From: Eubacteriales bacterium
Lineage (GTDB): Bacteria > Bacillota > Clostridia > Oscillospirales > QAKW01
Length of the DNA stretch: 51,774 nt
Direction of reading: 5' to 3'
NCBI GenBank assembly: GCA_045546895.1
Contig: JAZQDS010000102.1
Span: 1-51,774, forward strand
The translations under genes were made by a program, and so were the position numbers. This document shows, one piece after another, positions 14,264-49,620 of this stretch (positions are counted from its first letter, which is position 1; the number at the start of each line of letters is the position of its first letter). The notes beneath the pieces were generated by a model. That model saw nothing but the letters and a program-made list of their open reading frames with translations, did no database searches and was not told the DNA's origin.

Positions 14264-16417
14264 ATGAAGCTGAATCTTTTACCTTCGCCGCAATATGCAA
14301 AAGCAACGCCCATCGAAGGGCGCTCCTTGGTCGAGGGGTTGAAAACCGTTTATATAGAAGCAGGGCTTGAGGAAAAAATAGCTTCCGCCCTTGCTTTTTT
14401 GCCTTCCATGCAGCCCGCCGCCCGCGAGAAGGCGGCTCTGGTATTGAGCTGCACGCCGATGGAGGAGGATGCCGAATGGTTTCGGCATCCTTATGCTGCG
14501 GAGCAGGGCTATATTATAAGAGATTGCGGCGCGCAGGTGATTATTACTGCTTGCGCTGCGCAGGGATTAATGTATGGCATTGCGAGCCTGATCCAGCTCC
14601 CTGCTTTGCAGGCGGGCTTTGAAATCAAGGATTATCCCGATATTCGCTATCGCGCCAATAAATGGCTGATCTGGGCAGAGAGCGAGATCTGGTCCTATGA
14701 TCTCGGGGATGGCTATGATGCGGTTGTGGAGCGAATCCGCCGCAAGCTGGATGTTTGCCTGAAATATAAAATCAATTTGGTTTATTTTGACGGTTGGGGC
14801 GCCGATGTTGAGCGCTTTCCGCGTTATAAAGAGCTGATGCGGGAATGTAATCAGGAGGCGGAAAAGCGAGGAATTCGGCTGGTTTTCGGCGCCTATACCA
14901 TGGGCTATGGTCTTTCCGGTCATCAGATCGGAAAGCATTTCGGCAAGGTTTATATGAACCGCGCGCCTTATCCCGATGGACCGCTTTATGAATGCATGGG
15001 CACCTTTATCCATGATAAGCGCAACAATGGCATTCCCTATATCAAAGGGCGGGAGTACGGCACCTGCATTTCCAATGATGCCCAGCTGGCGGATAAGCTG
15101 GAGGAGCTTTGCCGCTTTGTTCGGGAAATTCAGCCCGGCGCGCTTTATTTACATAATATGGATTCCTGCAAAATCGATCAACGTCTTTGGCAGGCGCGCT
15201 GCTCCGAATGCAGGCGGCGCTGGCCATCGGATGATCTTTATGCCGCCGATGGAATGGCGGGCGCTTTTGCGGATTATTTTGATCGCTTGAATGGAGCGCT
15301 GAAAAAAGAAAGGCAGGATCTTTTGATTTTCAATGTTTCGCCCGGCTATATGGAATACAGGCTGGAGGATGATGAAATTGAGCGTGCCACGGAATTTTGG
15401 GCGGCTGTGCAGCGCTATTCCAAGGTGAAGGATGGCGTTTACCCGCTGGTAAGGGAGCTTTTCCAAAATAAGCGTAATGATGAATGGCGTATTCCTGCGA
15501 TGGCAAAGAAGCTTGAAAACTTCGGTATTATCAATTTCAGCGGCAGCGATGGTTTTTATAGCGATCAGCTGGTTGTTCCTACCGCGCTTATTTATAAGAT
15601 GTTTAAGGGCGCGGAGGTATTGATCTCCGCCAGCGGCAATTATTTTCAGGAACCGCTGCAGCTGGTGAATGCGGAATATATGTGGAATACCGATAATGCG
15701 GAGGAGCTGCCGCGCAGCTATGAGGAATTTCTTGCGCGCTATCATGATATGCGCCTCGGAAAGGATCGGCCTGCATTGATTTACGGCGCGGGCGGGCTGC
15801 TGGAAATCGCCTGCCAAAAGCTTTATGGCGAAGCAGCTCCGCAAATGGCTGAATTTTTCGGCCTGCATGGGAAGGGCGGGGAATGCCCCGTTCCCTATGC
15901 CTGCAGCAGGGAGATCGCAACCAATTGCAATAATGTTTTGCTCCATTATCGCTGGGATGTTCCCATTTCCGAAGAGGAACTGCAGGCTTGGACGGAACGC
16001 TTTGGCGAAATCCTGCGGCTGAATGAGCGGGGGCTTGCGCTGCTGGCGCAGGCGGCCGAGAAAAATGCCGATGCGGCGGAATATCGGCGGATTATGATGC
16101 TGAATCAGCCCTTCCTTTCTCTTTGGTATGAATATTTAAAGCTCTATCGGCAATTAGATGCCTATTTCCGCGGCGAAGGCGCGGAGGAAGGTGCAGCGGA
16201 GGCGGCTGCGCAGTTGATGCAAAAGGCAGAGGAGGAACAGGCGCATTTTGATGCGCTGGGCCTTGAGCCGCTGGATCCGATGGAAGGGGTATTCTGCCGC
16301 CGCAGAGAGCTGCTGAATACTTTGAAATATAATCTTTTACTGATGCAAAAAAGCTTGAAGACCAATCAGAGAATACCTGCCGATCGCGCGGAGCTTTCGG
16401 ATGAGGATTGGTGGTAA
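14264..16417 (+). CDS. Cytoplasmic glycoside-hydrolase-like protein (GH20 domain-2-like N-terminus plus uncharacterised barrel)
   Basis: EQGYII...VIITA..QGLMYGIASLIQL...EIKDYPDIRYR resembles hexosaminidase domain 2. GGAGGTG RBS. No signal peptide. Confidence 0.6.
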   Translation: MKLNLLPSPQYAKATPIEGRSLVEGLKTVYIEAGLEEKIASALAFLPSMQPAAREKAALVLSCTPMEEDAEWFRHPYAAEQGYIIRDCGAQVIITACAAQGLMYGIASLIQLPALQAGFEIKDYPDIRYRANKWLIWAESEIWSYDLGDGYDAVVERIRRKLDVCLKYKINLVYFDGWGADVERFPRYKELMRECNQEAEKRGIRLVFGAYTMGYGLSGHQIGKHFGKVYMNRAPYPDGPLYECMGTFIHDKRNNGIPYIKGREYGTCISNDAQLADKLEELCRFVREIQPGALYLHNMDSCKIDQRLWQARCSECRRRWPSDDLYAADGMAGAFADYFDRLNGALKKERQDLLIFNVSPGYMEYRLEDDEIERATEFWAAVQRYSKVKDGVYPLVRELFQNKRNDEWRIPAMAKKLENFGIINFSGSDGFYSDQLVVPTALIYKMFKGAEVLISASGNYFQEPLQLVNAEYMWNTDNAEELPRSYEEFLARYHDMRLGKDRPALIYGAGGLLEIACQKLYGEAAPQMAEFFGLHGKGGECPVPYACSREIATNCNNVLLHYRWDVPISEEELQAWTERFGEILRLNERGLALLAQAAEKNADAAEYRRIMMLNQPFLSLWYEYLKLYRQLDAYFRGEGAEEGAAEAAAQLMQKAEEEQAHFDALGLEPLDPMEGVFCRRRELLNTLKYNLLLMQKSLKTNQRIPADRAELSDEDWW

Positions 16418-16421
16418 AAAC

Positions 16422-16460
16422 AAAAACGGCAACGAAGGGTGCATCCTTCGTTGCCGTTTT
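16422..16460. terminator. Bidirectional terminator
   Basis: AAAACGGCAACGAAGG-GTGCAT-CCTTCGTTGCCGTTTT. Confidence 0.88.
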
Positions 16461-16461
16461 A

Positions 16462-17561
16462 TTATAGCTCAGAGGCAATATCGCCGAAATAATCGGAAAG
16501 CGCATTCCCAATCCCTCTGCGCAGTCTTTCATTTCTTTAACGGTATTGATATGGATCGAAATGCCGTTTTTCAGCCGCTCCTCCATAGCGATAATTTCCT
16601 TTTCGCCATGGGTATAAATTCGATCGCAGCCCTCCGCCAAAGGAGCTTGACGCAGCTCCTCCAGATAGGCGGAAAAATGCGCCCTGATGGCCTCGGGATC
16701 GCCAAACAAATTGGGATTGATGGCGATAAAGCCATGGCAGATCAGCGCTCGATTATCCTGATAAGTTTTATCGCTGGTAAGCCCTTGGGAGAGAATGGCG
16801 CTGAAAATTTCGCAGAGCATACCGTAGCCATATCCTTTATGGCCGCCGGTGGTTTCATAGGCGCCGCCCAGCGGCAGGATCCCGCCGCCTTGATGCGCCG
16901 CAATGCAATCGAGAACCTGCGGCGCGCCGGTGCATACCTTACCTTGGGCATCCAGAGCCCAGCAATCGGGCATTTCTTTTTCGGTCTTTTTATATAATTC
17001 CAATTTGCCGCGGGTTACTACCGAGGTGGAGGCATCAAAGAAGAAGGGATAGGGGTCTGCGGGCATCGCGACCGCGATGGGATTGCTGCCCAGCATCGCC
17101 TTGCGGGAGTTTGTGGGGACCATGATGGGCGCGGTATTGGTTACCGAAATGCCGATCAGCCCCTCATCGCAGGCCATTTTTGCGTAGTAGCCTGCGATGC
17201 CGTAGTGATTGGAGTTCTTTACCGTTACCATGCCGATGCCGGAGGTTTTTGCCTTTTGAATGGCCAGCTTCATTGCGCGATGGCTAACAATTTGGCCCAT
17301 TCCCTCCTTGGCATCGATCACCGCGGAAATCGGCGTTTCAAATATTGTTTCGGCTTTTGCATCCGCCTTGATCATCCCGCATTGCAGATGCTTATAATAG
17401 CGCATCAGCCGCTGGGTGCCGTGGGAATCAATGCCGTAGAGATCGGAAAGCAGGAGAACATCGGTGATAATCTTTGCCTGCTCGCAGTCGAAACCGAATT
17501 TTTGGAAAATATCGTTGCAGAATTACTTGAGATCCTGATATTGGAAGGTATATTCAGCCAT
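16462..17561 (-). pseudogene. Ldh_2-family oxidoreductase (malate/L-lactate/ureidoglycolate dehydrogenase type) with a nonsense codon and a 3' frameshift
   Basis: From ATG 17561 (AGGAGG RBS): MAEYTFQYQDLK*FCNDIF...SDLYGIDSHG, with TAA at 17523-17525. Motifs NSNHYGIAG, GSNPIA and GHKGYG are present. The apparent native end SDYFGDIASEL* (stop 16462) is in a shifted frame after about 16500. Confidence 0.85.
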
Positions 17562-17734: not shown

Positions 17735-17898
17735 ATAAATCAAGTCTGTTAGCAAATAAGTGATAAGTGATGCAGCTGCGCTGTGATAGGCGATGCGGTG
17801 CGTTCTATTCACGCGCCAAAGGCGCCCACCTCGTTCCGCAGGAACGCATCACTCAAAAAAGTCTCTTTTGTCTGGTAGACAAAAGATACTTTTTTGTT
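17735..17898. repeat. REP/BIME-like element, copy A (terminator plus 2 hairpins)
   Basis: Near-identical to 18266-18466: ATAAATCAAGTCTGTT...GTGATAAGTGATGCAGCTGCGCTGTGATAGGCGATGCG...GGAACGCATCACTCAAAAAAGTC.CTTTTGTCTGGTAGACAAAAG. Confidence 0.9.
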
Positions 17899-17959
17899 GC
17901 GAAAGAGTGCCCAAAAGCAGCGTAAGTATGGGTAAGAAAGGCTAAAAGTAGTGTAGATC

Positions 17960-18235
17960 CTATTTAGCCTTCTTTTCGTTCTCTCGTATTTTTTGCAGAG
18001 AATACGAATTACTGCAAACATTACACCAAAATTCCGTCCATACAAATTTTATATTTCCCACCATGTAAGTATCTCCGGATGAAAAATCATAATTCTTCGC
18101 TTCTTCAGATTTTGAATTGACGATCTTCGACATTTTAATTGGTGTAAGCAAAGCATTGCAGGCGGGACAATGGTGTTTCTTGAAGCGCACCCAAAAAGGT
18201 CTTGACCATTCTCTTTTTACGCCATGAATTTTCAA
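17960..18235 (-). CDS. Small hypothetical protein with a Zn-ribbon-like CxxC pair (91 aa)
   Basis: AAAGGAGG precedes TTG at 18235; CPAC...CNVC; AT-rich compared with neighbours. The ORF-track extension to 18424 just reads through the repeat. Confidence 0.75.
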   Translation of the reverse strand: MKIHGVKREWSRPFWVRFKKHHCPACNALLTPIKMSKIVNSKSEEAKNYDFSSGDTYMVGNIKFVWTEFWCNVCSNSYSLQKIRENEKKAK

Positions 18236-18265
18236 ACGGATCGCCTCCTTTAGAGATATTATATC

Positions 18266-18466
18266 ATAAATCAAGTCTGTTTGTAAACAAGTGATAAGTG
18301 ATGCAGCTGCGCTGTGATAGGCGATGCGATGCGTTCTGCCCACGCGCCGCAGGCGTGCATCACAGGCGAAGCCTGCATCACGCACGTAGTGCGCATCACG
18401 TTCCGCAAGGAACGCATCACTCAAAAAAGTCCCTTTTGTCTGGTAGACAAAAGGGACTTTTTTGTT
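18266..18466. repeat. REP/BIME-like element, copy B (terminator plus 4 TGATG-spaced hairpins), abutting the tRNA-Leu 3' end
   Basis: Minus strand: GTGATG CGTTCC-TTGC-GGAACG TGATG CGCAC-TAC-GTGCG TGATG CAGGC-TTC-GCCTG TGATG CACGCC-TGC-GGCGCGTG. Confidence 0.9.
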
Positions 18467-18548
18467 GGTGCGGGCGACAGGACTTGAACCTGCACGCTTT
18501 CGGCAATAGATCCTAAATCTATCGTGTCTGCCATTCCACCACGCCCGC
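18466..18548 (-). tRNA. tRNA-Leu(TAG)
   Basis: GCGGGCG/CGCCCGC acceptor stem, A73 and CCA. Anticodon arm ATAGA-TTTAGGA-TCTAT. Long variable arm; GTTCAAG T-loop. Confidence 0.95.
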
Positions 18549-42363: not shown

Positions 42364-42439
42364 AGGGGTATAGCTCAGCTGGTAGAGCAGCGGTCTCCAA
42401 AACCGCGTGTCGTGGGTTCGATTCCTACTGCCCCTGCCA
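42364..42439 (+). tRNA. tRNA-Trp(CCA)
   Basis: AGGGGTA/TGCCCCT acceptor stem, G73 and CCA. Anticodon arm GCGGT-CTCCAAA-ACCGC. Confidence 0.97.
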
Positions 42440-42479
42440 CAGCGGAGTTGCACTGCAACTCCGCTGAGTATATTTTTAT

Positions 42480-42553
42480 ACCGTATTAGCTCAGCTGGAT
42501 AGAGCACTCGCCTACTAAGCGAGAAGTCGTGGGTTCGAATCCCACATACGCTA
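42480..42553 (+). tRNA. Arg-like tRNA with anomalous ACT anticodon (possible pseudo-tRNA or att site)
   Basis: D arm GCTC-AGCTGGATA-GAGC; anticodon arm CTCGC-CTACTAA-GCGAG; T arm GTGGG-TTCGAAT-CCCAC. Acceptor ACCGTAT/ATACGCT has a C2:C71 mismatch. No encoded CCA; short variable loop. Confidence 0.75.
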
Positions 42554-42652
42554 CTTACATCATATGATGATAATATAAGAAACGGCTTAAACCCAATGTT
42601 TAAGCCGTTTTTCTTATGCCTATTTGATCGCGGCGCGCGGGCTTTTTTGTGC

Positions 42653-42741
42653 ATTGATGCTCTGAAATGAGCATCAATCTTGCTGTTTCGTGCTAACAAA
42701 TCCAAGGATTCCGTACCGTACAGCATCAATATAGCATCAAT
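42653..42741. repeat. GCATCAAT motif x4 (one inverted), candidate integrase arm-type sites
   Basis: ATTGATGC at 42653; GCATCAAT at 42671, 42723 and 42734. Confidence 0.65.
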
Positions 42742-42749
42742 CTTTTGGA

Positions 42750-43391
42750 TTATTTTTTTATTTCTTTCATGGACTTTTTAAGGTCGTTTATAAAGAATGA
42801 AAGTAGATTGCCTTTTTTTGTTCTTTTTAGTCCAAGATCTTTTCTCATTTCATTCATGATGCTTTCCATGACAAACATATTTTCTCGAGCAGTCTTTGGA
42901 TCAGCTCCGTTTTCTCTGAATTTGACCCATTTTTTCACAACTTTCTTAGAACCCCACAAAGTTATATCTTTAGAGAACCTTAATAGATCACTTATCATCT
43001 CTTCTTGGGTGTAGAAATTTGGATTTTTTGAGTTCTGTTGGATTTTATATACCATATCAACGAATTCGCCATAAGGTTTTTCACGCTTTTGTGCCAAATA
43101 TTCTTCTCTATTCTTTTTATAATCAATGATTTTTGAAACAACTGAACTAATGATCACACCGATAAGTGAAACGGTTGCTGTAATTAATGCAACTATTATG
43201 ACGGCATCTAATTTAGAGGCTAAAGAAGATAGCCAACCAACAAATCCCACCACACCTATGTATACCCAATAACAGAGTTGGAAAAAGAGATATCCGGCTA
43301 ATCCTGTAAGACCAAGAAAGAGAGCGACGCCAATAAGCATATTCAATTTGGGGTGCTTTTCACTAAATGGGCGAGGGTCTTTTTTATCCAT
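42750..43391 (-). CDS. Hypothetical membrane protein (element cargo)
   Basis: 213-aa AT-rich ORF with an AAGGA RBS; N-terminal hydrophobic segments and a helical C-terminus. Confidence 0.75.
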   Translation of the reverse strand: MDKKDPRPFSEKHPKLNMLIGVALFLGLTGLAGYLFFQLCYWVYIGVVGFVGWLSSLASKLDAVIIVALITATVSLIGVIISSVVSKIIDYKKNREEYLAQKREKPYGEFVDMVYKIQQNSKNPNFYTQEEMISDLLRFSKDITLWGSKKVVKKWVKFRENGADPKTARENMFVMESIMNEMRKDLGLKRTKKGNLLSFFINDLKKSMKEIKK

Positions 43392-43480
43392 AAGAACACA
43401 TCCTTGTTATTTTGTTAATGCTATTATACAACATTGATATGTTTTTGACAACTTAATTACTATAAGTTCTTCAAGGTGAT

Positions 43481-44050
43481 TTATTTGCTAAAGAGAAATG
43501 TTGCTAAAGTACCTAATACCCCTAATAAGAATGACATTCCGTAACCAATCATATTAGATAATATATTATCAAATATTGTTTTAAATATGTTGGCAATGGG
43601 TGTTTTTTGTAAAATCAGAGTTTTAAAGCCTTGCTCTGTTTTTTTGGAAAGGTTTGGAGAAATACAGTTAATGAGAATGGTAGTAGATTCTGTTAATTCC
43701 TTAAGGTGTTTGTCATCTTCTAATATAAGTTTTATGCGTGTGGATTGTTGTGCCGCTATATTAAGAAACATCTTTAAATAACGTTTTTTCTGGCATGAGA
43801 AAAGAAGTTGATGTTCCAATGTTGATAGACATTCATTTAATGAATTTAGAAATCCACTTTCGATAGTTTCTATGATTTTGGGAATTACAAACTTTTCATA
43901 ATTTCCCACACCGCTGACTTTGTGTTGTTGCGGAGCAATTAATAAGAATCTGCGACACTTAATAGAGTCTTCTTGTAATTGTTTTTCTAACTTGGTTTTG
44001 ATACTTTTAAATAATTGTCTGTTAGTCATTGATAGTTCCTCTTTCTTCAC
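43481..44050 (-). CDS. Hypothetical protein with a C-terminal TM (element cargo)
   Basis: 189-aa AT-rich ORF whose GTG overlaps the integrase stop (GTGA). Alternative ATG at 44029. Confidence 0.65.
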   Translation of the reverse strand: MKKEELSMTNRQLFKSIKTKLEKQLQEDSIKCRRFLLIAPQQHKVSGVGNYEKFVIPKIIETIESGFLNSLNECLSTLEHQLLFSCQKKRYLKMFLNIAAQQSTRIKLILEDDKHLKELTESTTILINCISPNLSKKTEQGFKTLILQKTPIANIFKTIFDNILSNMIGYGMSFLLGVLGTLATFLFSK

Positions 44051-45261
44051 ATTTCAAACTCATCTGTAATCCCATTCAGTCTTGTCGTATCCTTTTTCAC
44101 ATAATACATCTCGGTAATCTGTGACGTGCTATGCCCGAGCAGGTCGGCGACTTGCTTGGGGGATAGTGCTTTGATCGTGCCGTCCGCTTGTTTGATGCCG
44201 TTGACAAGGTTAGTGGCAAAGGTGTGGCGGAGAGCGTGCAGACCTTTCTTCTCAATCCCTGCAGCATCGAGGATGCGGTAGAAGCGTTTGCGGAAGTTGA
44301 CGGGGCGTGTGTAACCGCCCTTCTCGTCGCACACAAGGGGGCTATTTTCGCCGAAATAGAACTCTTTGCGTAGTTCCTTTATCATCTCAATAGTGGTGTT
44401 ATTAAGGGGAACATCGCGCTTGCTGGATACGCTCTTAAGCTTGCCAACCGATACCTCTCTGCCGGACTCAGCATTGACACCGTCACGCCGTGCAATCTCT
44501 TTGACACCGCGTTGCAGATGCATTACGCGATTTTCAAGATCGATGTCGCTGTTGAGCAGTCCAAGCATTTCGCCGGTGCGAAGTCCGGTGTTCAGCATCA
44601 GAATATACGCCGCTGCTTGCTGATACAATCGCTTGCCGGTCTTCCAGCATCTGAAACATTCCTTTTTGAATGTCTCAATCTCCTCGGGAGTGAATACCGT
44701 GACGGTTTCATTCGTGGGGAGACTTTCTTTTCCCTGCGCCGCCATAAAGTTTGCTTTCTTGATCATCGGCGCACTCTGCATAGGATTCTTTTGGATGATC
44801 TCCTGCTCGGTCAGATAACGGAAGTATTCATTCAGCAGGTTGTGGATCTTTTTTACAGTGGTGTAGGCGTACCCTTTATCCATACGGTCATTGAGGATCC
44901 TTTTGATGTCCGCTGATTTGATGGTGGATATAACTCGGTCGCCAAGTTCGGGGTAGATATGATTTTTGGCTGTACATTCAAGTCTATCGTAGGTGGTGCG
45001 CTCAACAGAGGGATACTTGAACACCTCAAGCCAACTTTGCATGCTGACGAATAGCACTTTCTTACTCTCATCCGATTCCTCAACCATTTTTTCAAAGTTG
45101 GCGATGTATTCGGTCATCTTTTTGTTGACCTCTTGTTTCGTTGTGCCGGAGAATGATTTGCGCTTACGCTCACCGCTCTCATCCATATACCAAACCACAC
45201 CGCCCCATCTTCCGTCGGTGCGCTTGAACGCATTACCATTGGTTAGTAGTTTCTTTGGCAT
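44047..45261 (-). CDS. Tyrosine recombinase/integrase of the IME
   Basis: KRTDGRW arm-binding N-terminus; TGLRTGE, HALRHTFAT, LLGH..TEMYY catalytic motifs; AAAGGAG RBS. Confidence 0.95.
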   Translation of the reverse strand: MPKKLLTNGNAFKRTDGRWGGVVWYMDESGERKRKSFSGTTKQEVNKKMTEYIANFEKMVEESDESKKVLFVSMQSWLEVFKYPSVERTTYDRLECTAKNHIYPELGDRVISTIKSADIKRILNDRMDKGYAYTTVKKIHNLLNEYFRYLTEQEIIQKNPMQSAPMIKKANFMAAQGKESLPTNETVTVFTPEEIETFKKECFRCWKTGKRLYQQAAAYILMLNTGLRTGEMLGLLNSDIDLENRVMHLQRGVKEIARRDGVNAESGREVSVGKLKSVSSKRDVPLNNTTIEMIKELRKEFYFGENSPLVCDEKGGYTRPVNFRKRFYRILDAAGIEKKGLHALRHTFATNLVNGIKQADGTIKALSPKQVADLLGHSTSQITEMYYVKKDTTRLNGITDEFEM

Positions 45262-45322
45262 ATTCTCGCTCCTTTCTTCAGCACAACACAATACCACAAC
45301 TCGTTTTAAATATCCAGCGTTT

Positions 45323-46654
45323 TTACAGATTCATTGTCGGCTCATTGTAATCGTAAGCTACACCTTTTTCAGTTTTAATACCGTGCGCCGCCTTCTTTGC
45401 TTCGATGGCGGACATCAACTTTCTGTCGATCTGCTTGCCAAGTCGGTTTGCGTGACGGTTATAATTGTTTTGGAATAATTTTAGGAAGGCACGGAACACA
45501 TTCGTAAACAGAAATCCGACCTTTTGCTCAGTGGAGTATCCTTGATTCACGAGATAGGTATCCATCTGCATCGCCGCCCTGATGATGTCGTTCTTCAGAC
45601 TGCGGAACTCTTTATTATCTTCCAGAGGAATATCCGGCTCTTTCTTTTCGTAATACAGGGACAGCTTCTCCTGATTGATTTTATTCCACTCGGCATAGAG
45701 TTCAGCCACATCCTCGTCTTTTGCAAACTCGGTAACGATTTTATTCACCGTTTCCTTGATCTTTTTCGGCAGATAACCATATACCTTTTTGCCTGAATGA
45801 TTTTTAAGCTGCTGTCGGAGTGCTTCAAATAAATATTGCATCTCCCAGCTCACTGGATACATGGAGAAAGCATCCTCCAACAGATCCTTGACTCGTTCTT
45901 TGACCAAGTCACGTTGCTGTGTTTCCATTTGGAACAGTTTATACTGTTCGTTACGAAAAATATCGTTTGCGAACAGTCGGCGCATATCCTCAATGGTTTT
46001 CTTGGTGATCCAACCTTGTTTGCCGTCTTTGGAGTATACCACCAAGTGAATGTGTGGATGATGATCCTTATTGTGAAAGCCGGCGTACCATTGCAGGTTG
46101 GAGAGACTGATGTTGTGCGCTTCGGCAATTTCAGCAACGTTGCGCCGTACTAAATCCTTCCACGCCTGTGCATTGTTGTAGCCGAGTCGTTCTGCATCCT
46201 CTCGGCGCAGACTGAGAATGTGTGTGAAGACGATTCCGTTATGAGCGTTGACTTCCTCAGCGACCTCATCCAAGTCTATCTTGTCATCGGTCTGAGTGAA
46301 CAGACCGTGAGTGCCGATCTTCTCAACGCCGGGGCGCTCCGCGATATACGAAACCAATTTATCGAGGCGGCGGACATCGTCACGCTCTATGACCGCATTT
46401 ATAAAATTGGTTGCGTTAGATTTTGTGGAGTCGGTTTCGTAATTTTGATACTCCACATACTCACGGCTGTGCGGAAACGATTTTACAATATCAGCGATGA
46501 GGCGCTGTTGCCGGACGGTTGACGGTGAGTGGTCAATCCCTATCGGTAATTTTTCAACGCTCTCGCGCGTTCCGATATACCGAAGGAGTCTCCCCGTGTT
46601 AGCTCTCGCCGGATTTTTATAATAGTTGCAAGTGAAAAATATCTTTGCCATCAC
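45323..46654 (-). CDS. Relaxase, MobP3/MobL-like
   Basis: RYIGTRESVEK, YIAERPGVEKIGTHGLF, ILSLRREDAERLGY, WYAGFHNKDHHPHIH (HUH motif). Confidence 0.88.
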   Translation of the reverse strand: MMAKIFFTCNYYKNPARANTGRLLRYIGTRESVEKLPIGIDHSPSTVRQQRLIADIVKSFPHSREYVEYQNYETDSTKSNATNFINAVIERDDVRRLDKLVSYIAERPGVEKIGTHGLFTQTDDKIDLDEVAEEVNAHNGIVFTHILSLRREDAERLGYNNAQAWKDLVRRNVAEIAEAHNISLSNLQWYAGFHNKDHHPHIHLVVYSKDGKQGWITKKTIEDMRRLFANDIFRNEQYKLFQMETQQRDLVKERVKDLLEDAFSMYPVSWEMQYLFEALRQQLKNHSGKKVYGYLPKKIKETVNKIVTEFAKDEDVAELYAEWNKINQEKLSLYYEKKEPDIPLEDNKEFRSLKNDIIRAAMQMDTYLVNQGYSTEQKVGFLFTNVFRAFLKLFQNNYNRHANRLGKQIDRKLMSAIEAKKAAHGIKTEKGVAYDYNEPTMNL

Positions 46655-47064
46655 TCATCACCGTCCTCGCTGTGCTGATAACGATAGGCATTTTCAAACG
46701 GAATGATGCCGTTGTTGGAAGCAACATCGCGGCAGCATCTATCGTTCAGATCGATTAGATCTTCTTCGCCGATTCTGAGGCCGAGGGATAATAAATGATT
46801 TTGTTTTGCGACCTCAACCGCCAACTTGAAAATAATTTCAGACAGGTTTCGCTCGATATCCGCCATCTGACTTTTCAGTATAGATGATAGGATCGGCGCG
46901 ATATAATCGATATTCTTTTCGTTGCGCAGATAGCCGATATAGAAATCAATCGCTTTATTGATAAAATCATTTTTGGATTTTGCATACCCATTATCTACAT
47001 ACGCATCAATCTCTGCGTTTTGCTCCGACGGAATATACACCGGAAACCTATATTTTTCAGGCAT
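46651..47064 (-). CDS. Ribbon-helix-helix relaxosome accessory-like protein
   Basis: AAAGGAG RBS; YRFPVYI...SKNDFINKAIDFYIGYL; overlaps the relaxase start. Confidence 0.7.
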   Translation of the reverse strand: MPEKYRFPVYIPSEQNAEIDAYVDNGYAKSKNDFINKAIDFYIGYLRNEKNIDYIAPILSSILKSQMADIERNLSEIIFKLAVEVAKQNHLLSLGLRIGEEDLIDLNDRCCRDVASNNGIIPFENAYRYQHSEDGDE

Positions 47065-47300
47065 TTTTATCTCCTTTCTGCAAGACCCCATAAATAAAGC
47101 CCTGATATTTTCGTAAAAGTCACAAACGGTCGGCTCTGCCGTCCGATGTAATAGGTGCGTAAGATGCTGCACTTTAACCTGCTTATCGTAATGACGATAA
47201 TTTTTCCGAAAAATCGTTGTAAAACCCTTTGGAAAGGGTTTTAATTGTTCCTTTATTATAGTTACTTGTTACCTTTTCACGCCGTGATAAGACTCTTTGT
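47065..47300. other. Candidate oriT/replication origin region
   Basis: Non-coding gap between rep and RHH-relaxase with inverted repeats TTATCGT-AATG-ACGATAA and AAAACCCTTT-GG-AAAGGGTTTT. Confidence 0.5.
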
Positions 47301-47302
47301 CA

Positions 47303-47692
47303 TCAGAATGGTAATTCTCCGTATTCCACCTGCTTTTTTCTATCCTCTTTTTTCTTGTGTTCAAAGAAATGGAACCGCCAGGGCGAATCAAAGTCTTGCA
47401 CGAAGTAATGATTATTGAAGGTGCGCGGTGTTCCGCTTTCAGTAACACCGCCGTGATAGTGCCTCTTGATATAGCGGCGCTCCTCTGAAATTTTAATGCG
47501 GCTTTGCGCGGTTGTAGGAGAGATATTCAGAGTCTTTGCAATGGTAGGTATGCTTGGCCAGCACTCACCTTTTGCACCGGCGCAACTTACAAGATAGGCG
47601 TAGATTATAAAGGTGTAGGGATCCAAGTCCATTTTGAAAATGTCGTTGGGCAACATAAAGAAGCCGTCTTGTTTTTCGTATTTCTTTTTCAT
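47303..47692 (-). CDS. Winged-HTH (HTH_36-like) replication-initiator-like protein
   Basis: FFMLPNDIF..IIYAYL..GECWPSIPTIAKTLNIS...N.Y. Confidence 0.75.
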   Translation of the reverse strand: MKKKYEKQDGFFMLPNDIFKMDLDPYTFIIYAYLVSCAGAKGECWPSIPTIAKTLNISPTTAQSRIKISEERRYIKRHYHGGVTESGTPRTFNNHYFVQDFDSPWRFHFFEHKKKEDRKKQVEYGELPF

Positions 47693-47904
47693 CGCCTTGC
47701 TCCTTTCTCTGCCTGTGTTGCGATCCATTTTATAAACTGTTCCTTTGGGATCACGATTCTCCCACGCACTTTTACACTGGGAAAGCCTTTTTCTTTTGTC
47801 AGCTCGTAGGCACTTGTCCGACTTACGCCAAGCACCGCACTTAGTTCCTGCACCGATAACATCAGCGGCAGGTCGTCGAAACTTTTATAATCCGATCGCT
47901 TCAT
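47689..47904 (-). CDS. Excisionase-like HTH_17 protein
   Basis: LPLMLSVQELSAVLGVSRTSAYEL...FPSVKVRGRIVIPKEQFIKW; GAAAGGTG RBS. Confidence 0.88.
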   Translation of the reverse strand: MKRSDYKSFDDLPLMLSVQELSAVLGVSRTSAYELTKEKGFPSVKVRGRIVIPKEQFIKWIATQAEKGARR

Positions 47905-48304
47905 TTTTCATCACCTTTCTAATGAAAATATCTTTTCTCTACAAATTTTACCATAGCACATCTGTCGAAAAAGAGAGAAATAAAGTTGTTACAAAAAATT
48001 AAACCGACTTTTAGTAACCAAATTCTAACATACTATATGTCCTATAAAACGGACTTCAAGAAGGTTGAATAAAAATGTTTAATATGAAAATCATGATCGA
48101 GCACATTATAACACTAACTTAATTTAGCATGGTCGCATTTTAGGCGACAAATTAATATTCTAAAATACTTGATTTTATTTCACATTCAAGTTAATATACG
48201 ACAAATGAAAAACGCCGCCGAAAAATCGGCGGCGTAACTCTTTTCGCAGAACAGAGTAATAAGCGAATAGACATATTACCCAAGATAATGACATTATATC
48301 ATGT

Positions 48305-49620
48305 TTACTTTGATAAAACAATCCCCCGAATGAATATTTTTAAAAAAATAAAATAAAAGGATAGTTTAAAAAGGCTCTTATAAATATTTTCAATGGTCAG
48401 ATTTGCCGTCATTGTAAAATAAAAAGCGCACAACACAGAAAGGATGAAAATAAATGGCAAAAAAAGGAACAAATATTTACAAACGTAAAGATGGCAGATG
48501 GGAAGGACGGTATATCTCTGAGGTTTTAAGTGATGGAACTAAAAAGTATTCGTCTGTTTATGGAAAAACATATAAAGAAGCCAGAGAAAAGCAACTTCTC
48601 CAAATGAGTAGTGTTCACCTTAAGAACAATAAAAAGTTTTTTATGACCACTGAGGAATTAATGTGGGAATGGCTTGGAACTATAATCAACAAAGTAAAGA
48701 GAACAACTTTTCAAAAATATGAAAGTATTATTAAAAATCACATATGCTTATCTTCAATTGGTTCTCTACAAATAAAATATATATCCGGAAAAATAATTTC
48801 GACCTTTGCAAACGAAAGGTTGAAAAGTGTATCGGCAAAAACGGTTAATGACATCTTGATAATAGTAGGTCTCGCCTTTTCGTATGCCGAAGAAGAATAC
48901 GGTTTGCCCAAACCACATATCCATCGCATTAAAGAAGAAGCGAAAGAAATGCGAGTGCTGTCTGTAATTGAACAAAAACGATTGGAAACATATTTATTTC
49001 AAGATACAGATTTGTATAAACTTGGTGTTTTACTGGCGCTTTACACTGGAATACGCATTGGAGAATTATGCGCATTAGAGTGGAAAGATATTACGGAGAC
49101 GTATATTGTTATTAACAAAACATTACACCGCATCAAAGAAGGTGATACGACTGTTGTTGAAATAACAGAGCCTAAAACAAAAACCTCAAATCGAAAAATA
49201 CCGATCCCTTTGTTTTTGCTGCCTGTTATCGATCGGTTTCGTACGGATGGCTATGTAATTACTAATAGAAATAAAAATTTAGTAGAGCCTCGACTTATGC
49301 AGCTTTCTTTTAAAAAAATCATTTCGGATTGTGAATTACCCAAAACGAACTTTCATGCATTGAGACATACATTTGCAACTCGATGTATTGAGGCTGGATT
49401 CGATGTAAAATCTTTATCAGAAATTCTTGGTCATGCTGATGTTAAAACGACGCTTAATAGATATGTGCATTCCTCTTTTGAACAAAAGCAACGAAACATG
49501 GATCTTCTGAAACCTGCAATCAATATGTAGTTTAAGCCGTCAAAAAAATGGTCATTGAATTATGATGGTGTAAGTAGTTTCTTGCATTTTTGTTTGTTCT
49601 TCCGTTATTACTCTGATAAA
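48305..49620 (+). mobile_element. Putative integrase-only element bounded by a TTACT(T/C)TGATAAA direct repeat
   Basis: Core-like repeat at 48305-48317 and 49608-49620; paired heptamers inside both ends; the only gene is the integrase. Confidence 0.5.
48454..49530 (+). CDS. Tyrosine recombinase/integrase (solitary)
   Basis: NIYKRKDGRWEGRY arm-binding N-terminus; TGIRIGE, HALRHTFAT, ILGH..TLNRY. Confidence 0.95.
   Translation: MAKKGTNIYKRKDGRWEGRYISEVLSDGTKKYSSVYGKTYKEAREKQLLQMSSVHLKNNKKFFMTTEELMWEWLGTIINKVKRTTFQKYESIIKNHICLSSIGSLQIKYISGKIISTFANERLKSVSAKTVNDILIIVGLAFSYAEEEYGLPKPHIHRIKEEAKEMRVLSVIEQKRLETYLFQDTDLYKLGVLLALYTGIRIGELCALEWKDITETYIVINKTLHRIKEGDTTVVEITEPKTKTSNRKIPIPLFLLPVIDRFRTDGYVITNRNKNLVEPRLMQLSFKKIISDCELPKTNFHALRHTFATRCIEAGFDVKSLSEILGHADVKTTLNRYVHSSFEQKQRNMDLLKPAINM

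Follow-up and report, generated by a model that had tools for sequence, protein, structure and literature searches.

A short gene cassette behind a tRNA-Leu(TAG) gene of an Eubacteriales bacterium (NCBI GenBank assembly GCA_045546895.1) is mobile and modular: cargo, ladder type and target tRNA are exchanged across bacterial families. On balance it is probably a non-autonomous mini-cassette, inserted exactly behind the encoded CCA of the tRNA gene by a site-specific recombinase supplied in trans, with the crossover likely at a shared CA dinucleotide. The window analysed is the whole stretch of 51,774 nucleotides (contig JAZQDS010000102.1). A cassette unit is understood here as left hairpin, ladder, promoter, one or more genes and a right end named R1, since R1 is followed either by a new left hairpin or by an ordinary terminator-like hairpin. 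The locus contains the following features.

18589-18561, minus strand: promoter of tRNA-Leu(TAG)
18466..18548, minus strand: tRNA-Leu(TAG), the insertion target (ARAGORN; Rfam tRNA 57.5 bits)
18468-18466, minus strand: encoded CCA of tRNA-Leu(TAG)
17898..18465, minus strand: cassette unit 1 of 568 bp (left hairpin, ladder, promoter, gene and R1)
18422..18465, minus strand: left end of unit 1, a terminator-like 20-bp hairpin with A/T tails and a TTTGTC motif whose G is 18 nt past the CA junction (perfect 20-nt arms; fixed register; covarying stem)
18289..18421, minus strand: TGATG ladder of unit 1, a distant Gut-1 relative (RF01706, 20.8 bits)
18244..18287, minus strand: predicted sigma-70 promoter (TTTACA, 18 nt, TG-TATAAT; consensus 11/12) and AAAGGAGG ribosome-binding site
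17960..18235, minus strand: cargo gene of 91 aa, TTG start, CxxC-containing
17898..17957, minus strand: right end R1, T-rich, ending TTTC-R-CA (7 genomic copies; 45-copy alignment)
17735..17897, minus strand: repeat A, a second unit truncated to its left end, with no R1 downstream

The first base of unit 1 (18465) directly follows the CCA of the tRNA-Leu gene and its last bases are CA (17898). The tRNA gene, the two repeats and the small gene listed in an earlier note on this DNA are indeed all present on the minus strand where that note had put them. Repeat B runs from the tRNA CCA through a perfect 20-bp hairpin, four TGATG-led hairpins and inverted ATCAC units into a promoter and a ribosome-binding site. 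Repeat A consists of the same hairpin with one mismatch (17896-17854) and a ladder shortened to two hairpins; it is 37 nt shorter than B, ends at 17735 and lacks the -10, the gene and the right end. The two repeats share a 60-nt block that is 95% alike and a 90-nt block that is 90% alike (blastn E 1e-38); the arms of their long hairpins disagree at positions 11-13. The proposal that repeat B supplies the promoter of the next gene agrees with the predicted extended -10 promoter in B, which matches 11 of 12 consensus positions and is followed by AAAGGAGG and the TTG start, and with the end of repeat A ahead of its -10. The same note regarded the gene as bracketed by two repeats. A conserved 60-nt sequence, R1 (17957-17898), was found between the cargo stop codon and repeat A, so that the gene is not simply bracketed. 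Its view of a repeat plus gene placed behind a tRNA and stacked in an array was correct, and the boundaries had to be redrawn, from left hairpin to R1 instead of from repeat to repeat. A second unit has lost everything but its left end, which is repeat A.

The array is neighboured by AraC and Ldh_2 genes. The Ldh_2 gene behind repeat A (window 16092-17561, minus strand) has an in-frame TAA at codon 13 (17525-17523), which reads CAA in a 99%-alike contig from one sequencing run, and its frame extends across a 3'-terminal, terminator-like hairpin; it is possibly a decaying gene or an assembly error. Elsewhere in the window (42364-49530) an element with a tyrosine integrase, a MobP3 relaxase and another integrase gene lies behind tRNA-Trp and an unusual second tRNA call.

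The repeat was found by blastn directly behind the CCA of five tRNA genes in this genome, tRNA-Val(GAC), Ser(TGA), Leu(GAG), Arg(ACG) and Leu(TAG), which disposes of a one-off duplication; the first four of these copies are located on contigs C37, C46, C97 and C77, and a partial one lies at the start of C42. Left hairpins of this kind occur at 7 of the 44 tRNA calls in the genome. R1 closes 55 distinct units among the loci fetched, and 44 of these start at a tRNA. The left hairpin opens 41 of these 44 tRNA-to-R1 units, of 310-1615 bp and behind 18 anticodon types, a count in which one locus is entered twice and which is not fully independent because the loci were gathered partly by their left end and partly by R1 or cargo. 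Most units measure 0.5-1.2 kb. A protein family scan covered 46 of the 61 called cargo ORFs, those omitted being mostly repeats of the same protein; 9 of the 46 belong to a four-helix-bundle family (PF05635), 12 to other families (NUDIX, phosphatase, methyltransferase, DUFs) and 25 had no match, while a recombinase was present in none of the 46. Multi-unit arrays exist as well (C30, C25, L302). In the genus tRNA-Val(GAC) is a hot spot, with ladder units of several types at about a dozen examined loci (L332-L350). Four-helix-bundle genes (PF05635/TIGR02436, weakly Avd-like) were also noted behind ladders or within units on C30 (16-243), C66 (11388-11690), C42 and C81 (306-605 and 2492-2746), one of those on C81 being flanked by heptamer repeats instead.

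The 91-aa cargo protein belongs to no Pfam or NCBIfam family over cut-off, and weak FYVE and DUF5607 matches were discarded as under cut-off. It matches unnamed Bacillota clusters at 0.95-0.96, and 38 related loci were found in the genome collection. Six of these encode the protein at 88-90% identity, under the titles Acutalibacteraceae, Faecousia and Clostridia, and R1 directly follows the gene in all six. They sit behind tRNA-Leu(CAA), Gly(CCC), Ser(CGA), Ser(GGA) or another right end, and carry ladder types other than that of the window; a profile search over all loci gave no R1 match at E 1e-3 for the remaining 32. Only 1 of the 24 tRNA-Leu(TAG) loci of the genus, the window's own, holds the gene, yet its 88-90% identical copies occur behind other tRNAs and in other families, which speaks against the gene being fixed, a possibility the earlier note had raised. 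An upstream araC is common to 7 of the other 23 tRNA-Leu(TAG) loci, and 2 of them have ladder units of other types. One gut metatranscriptome assembly contained pieces of the 568-bp cassette together with a ~90%-alike cargo copy joined to another ladder; read cover in RNA libraries was not taken as evidence of transcription, and runs with a small share were not counted as evidence of habitat.

The left hairpin and the ladder behave as separate parts. In the ladder, four units of linker and hairpin are followed by a central copy of the first unit in inverse orientation (GAACGCATC) and then by inverted (C)ATCAC units. Compared with 200 shuffles, folding of the repeats gave z values of -10.0 (B) and -6.4 (A). 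It had been noted that the stems differ in sequence and stay paired. For the long first hairpin this holds, with compensatory changes in 5 of 19 pairs; for the four ladder hairpins it does not, two-sided changes being seen in 0 of 20 pairs (7 copies compared in both cases). In a larger set of 67 left ends, at least 14 of the 19 pairs are formed in 63, and the 13 nt before a TTTGTC motif covary with the closing arm. Behind one type of left end six ladder classes are found, or no ladder at all. The tRNA-Gln and tRNA-Leu(TAA) genes are followed by a left hairpin of the same kind and then a TGAAAT ladder. The TGAAAT ladders are the Rfam motif Gut-1, which has 20 matches above cut-off in this genome, and several of these true Gut-1 matches occupy the ladder slot of sister cassettes behind tRNAs. 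Repeat B aligned over the full length of the RF01706 model at 20.8 bits (E 0.04) and does not reach the gathering cut-off of 50 bits. Rfam miRNA and symR matches at the locus were far under cut-off. About a dozen non-tRNA sites in the genome carry Gut-1-type ladders that have other lead hairpins. The ladder is therefore an independent module, and in the cassette it is an exchangeable passenger. Gut-1 ladders of the TGATAT type, which have another lead hairpin, are found behind ordinary genes and not behind tRNAs on contigs C11, C31, C51, C107, C34, C66, C50, C9, C73, C20, C104 and C90.

These repeated hairpins had suggested a REP/BIME-like element spread by a RAYT, with a gene captured between two repeats. 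Small GC-rich intergenic hairpins are clustered here and Gut-1-type ladders do occur at the dozen or so non-tRNA sites, in line with such an origin. Against it, no RAYT or Y1 gene was found in this genome (0 matches to PF01797), and the sought RAYT/TnpA(Y1) gene flanked by the same hairpins was likewise absent from it; RAYT-like genes were detected in two cassette-rich relatives (G007, G073), where the flanks are unrelated to the repeats. The hairpins are led by TGATG and not by GTAG, copies of the TGATG type are located at tRNA ends or behind R1, and it is R1, not another ladder of like type, that accompanies the cargo. For the cassette the RAYT label is largely refuted, and we leave it hardly any probability.

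R1 is present in 7 copies in this genome and was found in 19 of 141 genomes of the order and in 7 of 30 genomes of the genus, the own genome included. Its terminus TTTC-R-CA is almost invariant in a tally in which part of the copies were selected on that motif. It consists of a pyrimidine-rich direct repeat, with two copies 31 bp apart (the self-match peaks at lag 31 with 0.57, the next value being 0.42), and by inspection it has no hairpin. R1 was also compared by inspection with the 3' end of recombinase genes, with no match. A class-wide scan for the R1 pattern matched 3 of 401 genomes, yet the reversed control also gave 3 matches and the scan is therefore uninformative beyond the order. 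Viral contigs gave 0 matches for the R1 pattern and 0 for the left-end pattern, and no match was obtained in plasmid and phage collections. Other right-end types, most of them ending in CA, close similar units (C25, C97, C106, C42, C52; L041, L115, L234); one has TTC 18 nt before CA and is tRNA-end-like, and one has a GTTCGAATTC-like motif further upstream. Two loci show inverted copies: a tRNA, a hairpin and an inverted R1 (L307:98, minus strand) and R1, a hairpin and an inverted R1 (L154:2983). In both, R1-CA joins the far foot of the left hairpin with the +18 register kept, and the loop of this hairpin is found in either orientation; inversion by a recombinase, template switching or misassembly may account for these joints.

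The geometry of the junctions favours site-specific recombination. Within 18 tRNA types the only sequence common to all tRNA ends and R1 is CA, and a copy of several bases of the tRNA 3' end is not present at the far junction, where the overlap is again CA. The G of TTTGTC is found 18 nt after CA at 22 of 27 tRNA junctions and 17 of 24 R1 junctions, these being the junctions with the motif within 30 nt (106 distinct tRNA flanks were examined). At tRNA-Val(GAC) the hairpin that follows R1-CA in this genome directly follows CCA in two congeners, and the stretch shared by the empty and the filled site starts at CA. The flanking genes of this pair differ and the downstream hairpin itself opens another ladder unit, so it is a comparison of sites and not a strain pair. 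By eye, the half-sites around CA have a weak inverted symmetry of TTT/AAA and one or two further positions. A circle or excision joint was not seen in the contigs of six sequencing runs, which cannot show their absence since contigs break at the tRNA and hairpin repeats.

With a recombinase acting at CA, the cassette would pass through a circular intermediate in which the right end is joined through CA to the left hairpin, and this circle would recombine with a tRNA end. Each new unit would thus land next to the tRNA and push older units, such as repeat A, downstream, where they would decay. On insertion the left hairpin would replace the terminator of the tRNA gene, and the internal promoter would express the cargo. 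The unit carries no mobility gene and was therefore probably moved in trans, as the earlier note, which saw no adjacent transposase or integrase, had proposed. DDE transposition was ruled out by the lack of terminal inverted repeats and of a target duplication, and RNA-mediated transposition by the internal promoter downstream of the left end.

A serine-type enzyme is the likeliest class of candidate, because such enzymes exchange at a central dinucleotide. Serine integrases recombine there with motifs at fixed distance, and the attP and attB motifs are shifted by 5 bp (PMC3783163). The common CA and the TTTGTC motif at fixed distance would fit this logic, but the arms are only weakly symmetric, and the searches gave no linked enzyme. 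The genome is 96% complete and has one weak recombinase-domain match and no match to the resolvase domain, which is also lacking from 2 of 5 cassette-bearing genomes. A serine-recombinase profile run over this genome and the fetched loci gave no link to R1, and none of 33 R1-pattern loci (about 7 of which are chance matches) has a recombinase upstream. The IS110 DEDD recombinase (PF01548) was found in none of five genomes, this one included, and a reverse transcriptase (PF00078) is absent from this genome and present in 2 of the five.

One common clostridial family of large serine recombinases, P0001, appears to integrate at tRNA 3' ends and occurs in 48 of 151 genomes of the order. In a congener (L003) a P0001 gene runs straight into a cassette left end, and at L003, L115, L089 and L096 a recombinase gene ends and ladder units directly follow. 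The P0001 gene ends read GTTY-23 nt-CA in 26 of 31 cases and the spacing is 18 nt in 42 of 44 tRNAs, a difference equal to the 5-bp attP-attB shift of serine integrases; judged from these motifs, the enzyme appears to recognise the T-loop of the tRNA as attB motif. Apparently intact P0001 sites in viral contigs, of four types and inspected by eye, are symmetric about tRNA nt 71-72 and keep the CCA. R1 has mostly TTA in the place of GTTY, ends in C-R-CA and contains neither GTTY nor CCA, so P0001 shares the target and is, from its sites, probably not the enzyme of the cassette. With its different register the P0001 recombinase of L003 was rejected as candidate, and the family cannot be named the enzyme. 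Side observations on P0001 are an attachment site inside the gene 3' end with a tRNA T-loop-like motif shifted 5 bp (L003, L088-L117, L171-L194) and left ends behind tRNA-Leu(CAG) in L120 and L130.

Other enzymes would read the same ends differently. A tyrosine recombinase tolerating unmatched overlaps, Tn916-like or host Xer-like, might use the 31-bp-spaced repeats of R1 as arm-type sites. Tn916 has comparable arm and coupling sequences, and the junction can be read as a T-tract, about 6 nt and an A-tract. Five tyrosine recombinases are encoded in this genome, none at cassette arrays, and such enzymes occur in all 6 cassette-bearing genomes checked, but equally in all 14 control genomes. No array in the 41 loci mapped has an integrase gene next to it. 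The tRNA end is not duplicated, the tRNA side has no T-tract and CA is kept at both junctions, which makes a tyrosine recombinase quite unlikely.

An HUH enzyme of the relaxase, Rep or Y1 type, moving the cassettes in trans as single-stranded DNA, is unlikely. On the bottom strand such a unit would start at TG with the two direct repeats as initiator sites and end at the hairpin before the TGG of the tRNA, with the ladder as single-strand origin or recognition structure, a plan that recalls rolling-circle elements. The absence of target duplication, the asymmetric ends, the covarying fixed-length hairpin at one end, the strong folding of the ladder and the weak symmetry around CA are consistent with it, and a relaxase-bearing element is located in the same window. 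However, Y1 is missing from this genome, and in the 3 of 5 relatives that have it the three weak or partial genes inspected do not adjoin ladders. R1 forms no hairpin by inspection, and the ladder behind one kind of left end may be any of six types or absent.

Finally, the units may be decayed, CIME-like remains of larger integrative elements, immobile on their own, with homologous recombination between hairpins or ladders shuffling the cargo among tRNA loci. Many units are truncated or lack a gene (repeat A; C37, C65, C42), mixed ladders and hairpins joined to inverted R1 occur (L154, L307), and no enzyme was found. However, the units are small and uniform in size, conservation at their ends is exact to the base, nearly identical cargo is found in different families, and a parent with both ends, left hairpin and R1, was not found in the searches. 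We regard decay from larger elements as quite unlikely and retain insertion by a recombinase acting in trans as the preferred reading.

It is tempting to place the cassettes in a wider, integron-like system of gene capture on the tRNA ends of gut Clostridia. Here a hitherto undescribed recombinase that reads the universal tRNA end would place mini-cassettes, with their promoter, a standard left hairpin and one of several types of right end, into nearly any tRNA gene at its CA, and Gut-1-type ladders and a four-helix-bundle, Avd-like partner would be working parts; this extension is possible, and doubtful as it stands. The cassettes offer a route for small genes across family boundaries in gut Clostridia with precisely defined recombination sites, and they give the orphan motif Gut-1 a context. 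If an enzyme inserts DNA behind the CCA of many tRNA genes without damage, it would be useful for genome engineering.

Integrons hold arrays of small, mostly single-gene cassettes of no assigned function, each closed by an attC hairpin with RYYYAAC/GTTRRRY ends. The arrays described here resemble them in their small single-gene cassettes and in the newest unit probably lying next to the fixed site. Unlike integrons, they have no IntI and many anchor sites per genome, and the units carry their own terminator and promoter. The suggestion of an integron-type array is accordingly not borne out: no integrase lies beside the array, and no attC-like hairpin was seen in the R1 alignment inspected by eye. 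REP/BIME elements have a GTAG/GGAG tetranucleotide at the 5' foot of the palindrome. The likeness to them is confined to repeated intergenic GC-rich hairpins, whereas the cassettes lack the GTAG foot (GTAG is confined here to the opposite strand, at the long hairpin's loop) and a cognate RAYT, are specific for tRNA ends and have a separate right end that is not a hairpin. To our knowledge, no autonomous parent of the cassettes is known.

Gut-1 was described from environmental sequences, as an orphan non-coding RNA (PMC2864571). Like the cassette ladder, RF01706 consists of a short linker and a small hairpin, three to four times in series (PMC2864571), but the linker is TGAAAT in Gut-1 and TGATG in the cassette. 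There, as part of a DNA unit, a terminator-like hairpin precedes a two-sided ladder whose first half is the Gut-1-type motif. The large serine integrases, following the A118/LI attP-attB logic (PMC3783163), and P0001 share with the cassettes an overlap of dinucleotide size, and P0001 uses the same tRNA 3' ends. P0001 differs in its GTTY-23 nt-CA ends, in retaining CCA and in an apparent crossover at tRNA nt 71-72; R1 has neither GTTY nor CCA. The accretion of recombinase-less, decayed elements at att sites by site-specific insertion has been reviewed, and the IMEs at tRNA ends in the table of that review have tyrosine integrases and one tRNA each (PMC5704250). Larger elements of Faecalibacterium are described in PMC12084326, and the main text of PMC10083194, whose supplements may list tRNA targets, has no occurrence of 'tRNA'. 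With CIMEs and tandem accretion (PMC5704250; PMC12084326) the cassettes have in common that they lack recombinase and transfer genes, keep their ends and are stacked at a tRNA end; in contrast to CIMEs they share only CA, use 18 anticodon types, measure 0.3-1.6 kb and have a standard layout. New here are the ends to the base, the overlap of CA alone, the constant register of the left end and the removal of P0001, the obvious family of serine recombinases, from the likely enzymes. The literature searched, which mostly lay outside subscription journals, contained no account of such cassettes. They are real and mobile and seem not to have been described in print, a variant of tRNA-end accretion that resembles an integron array but is not an integron.
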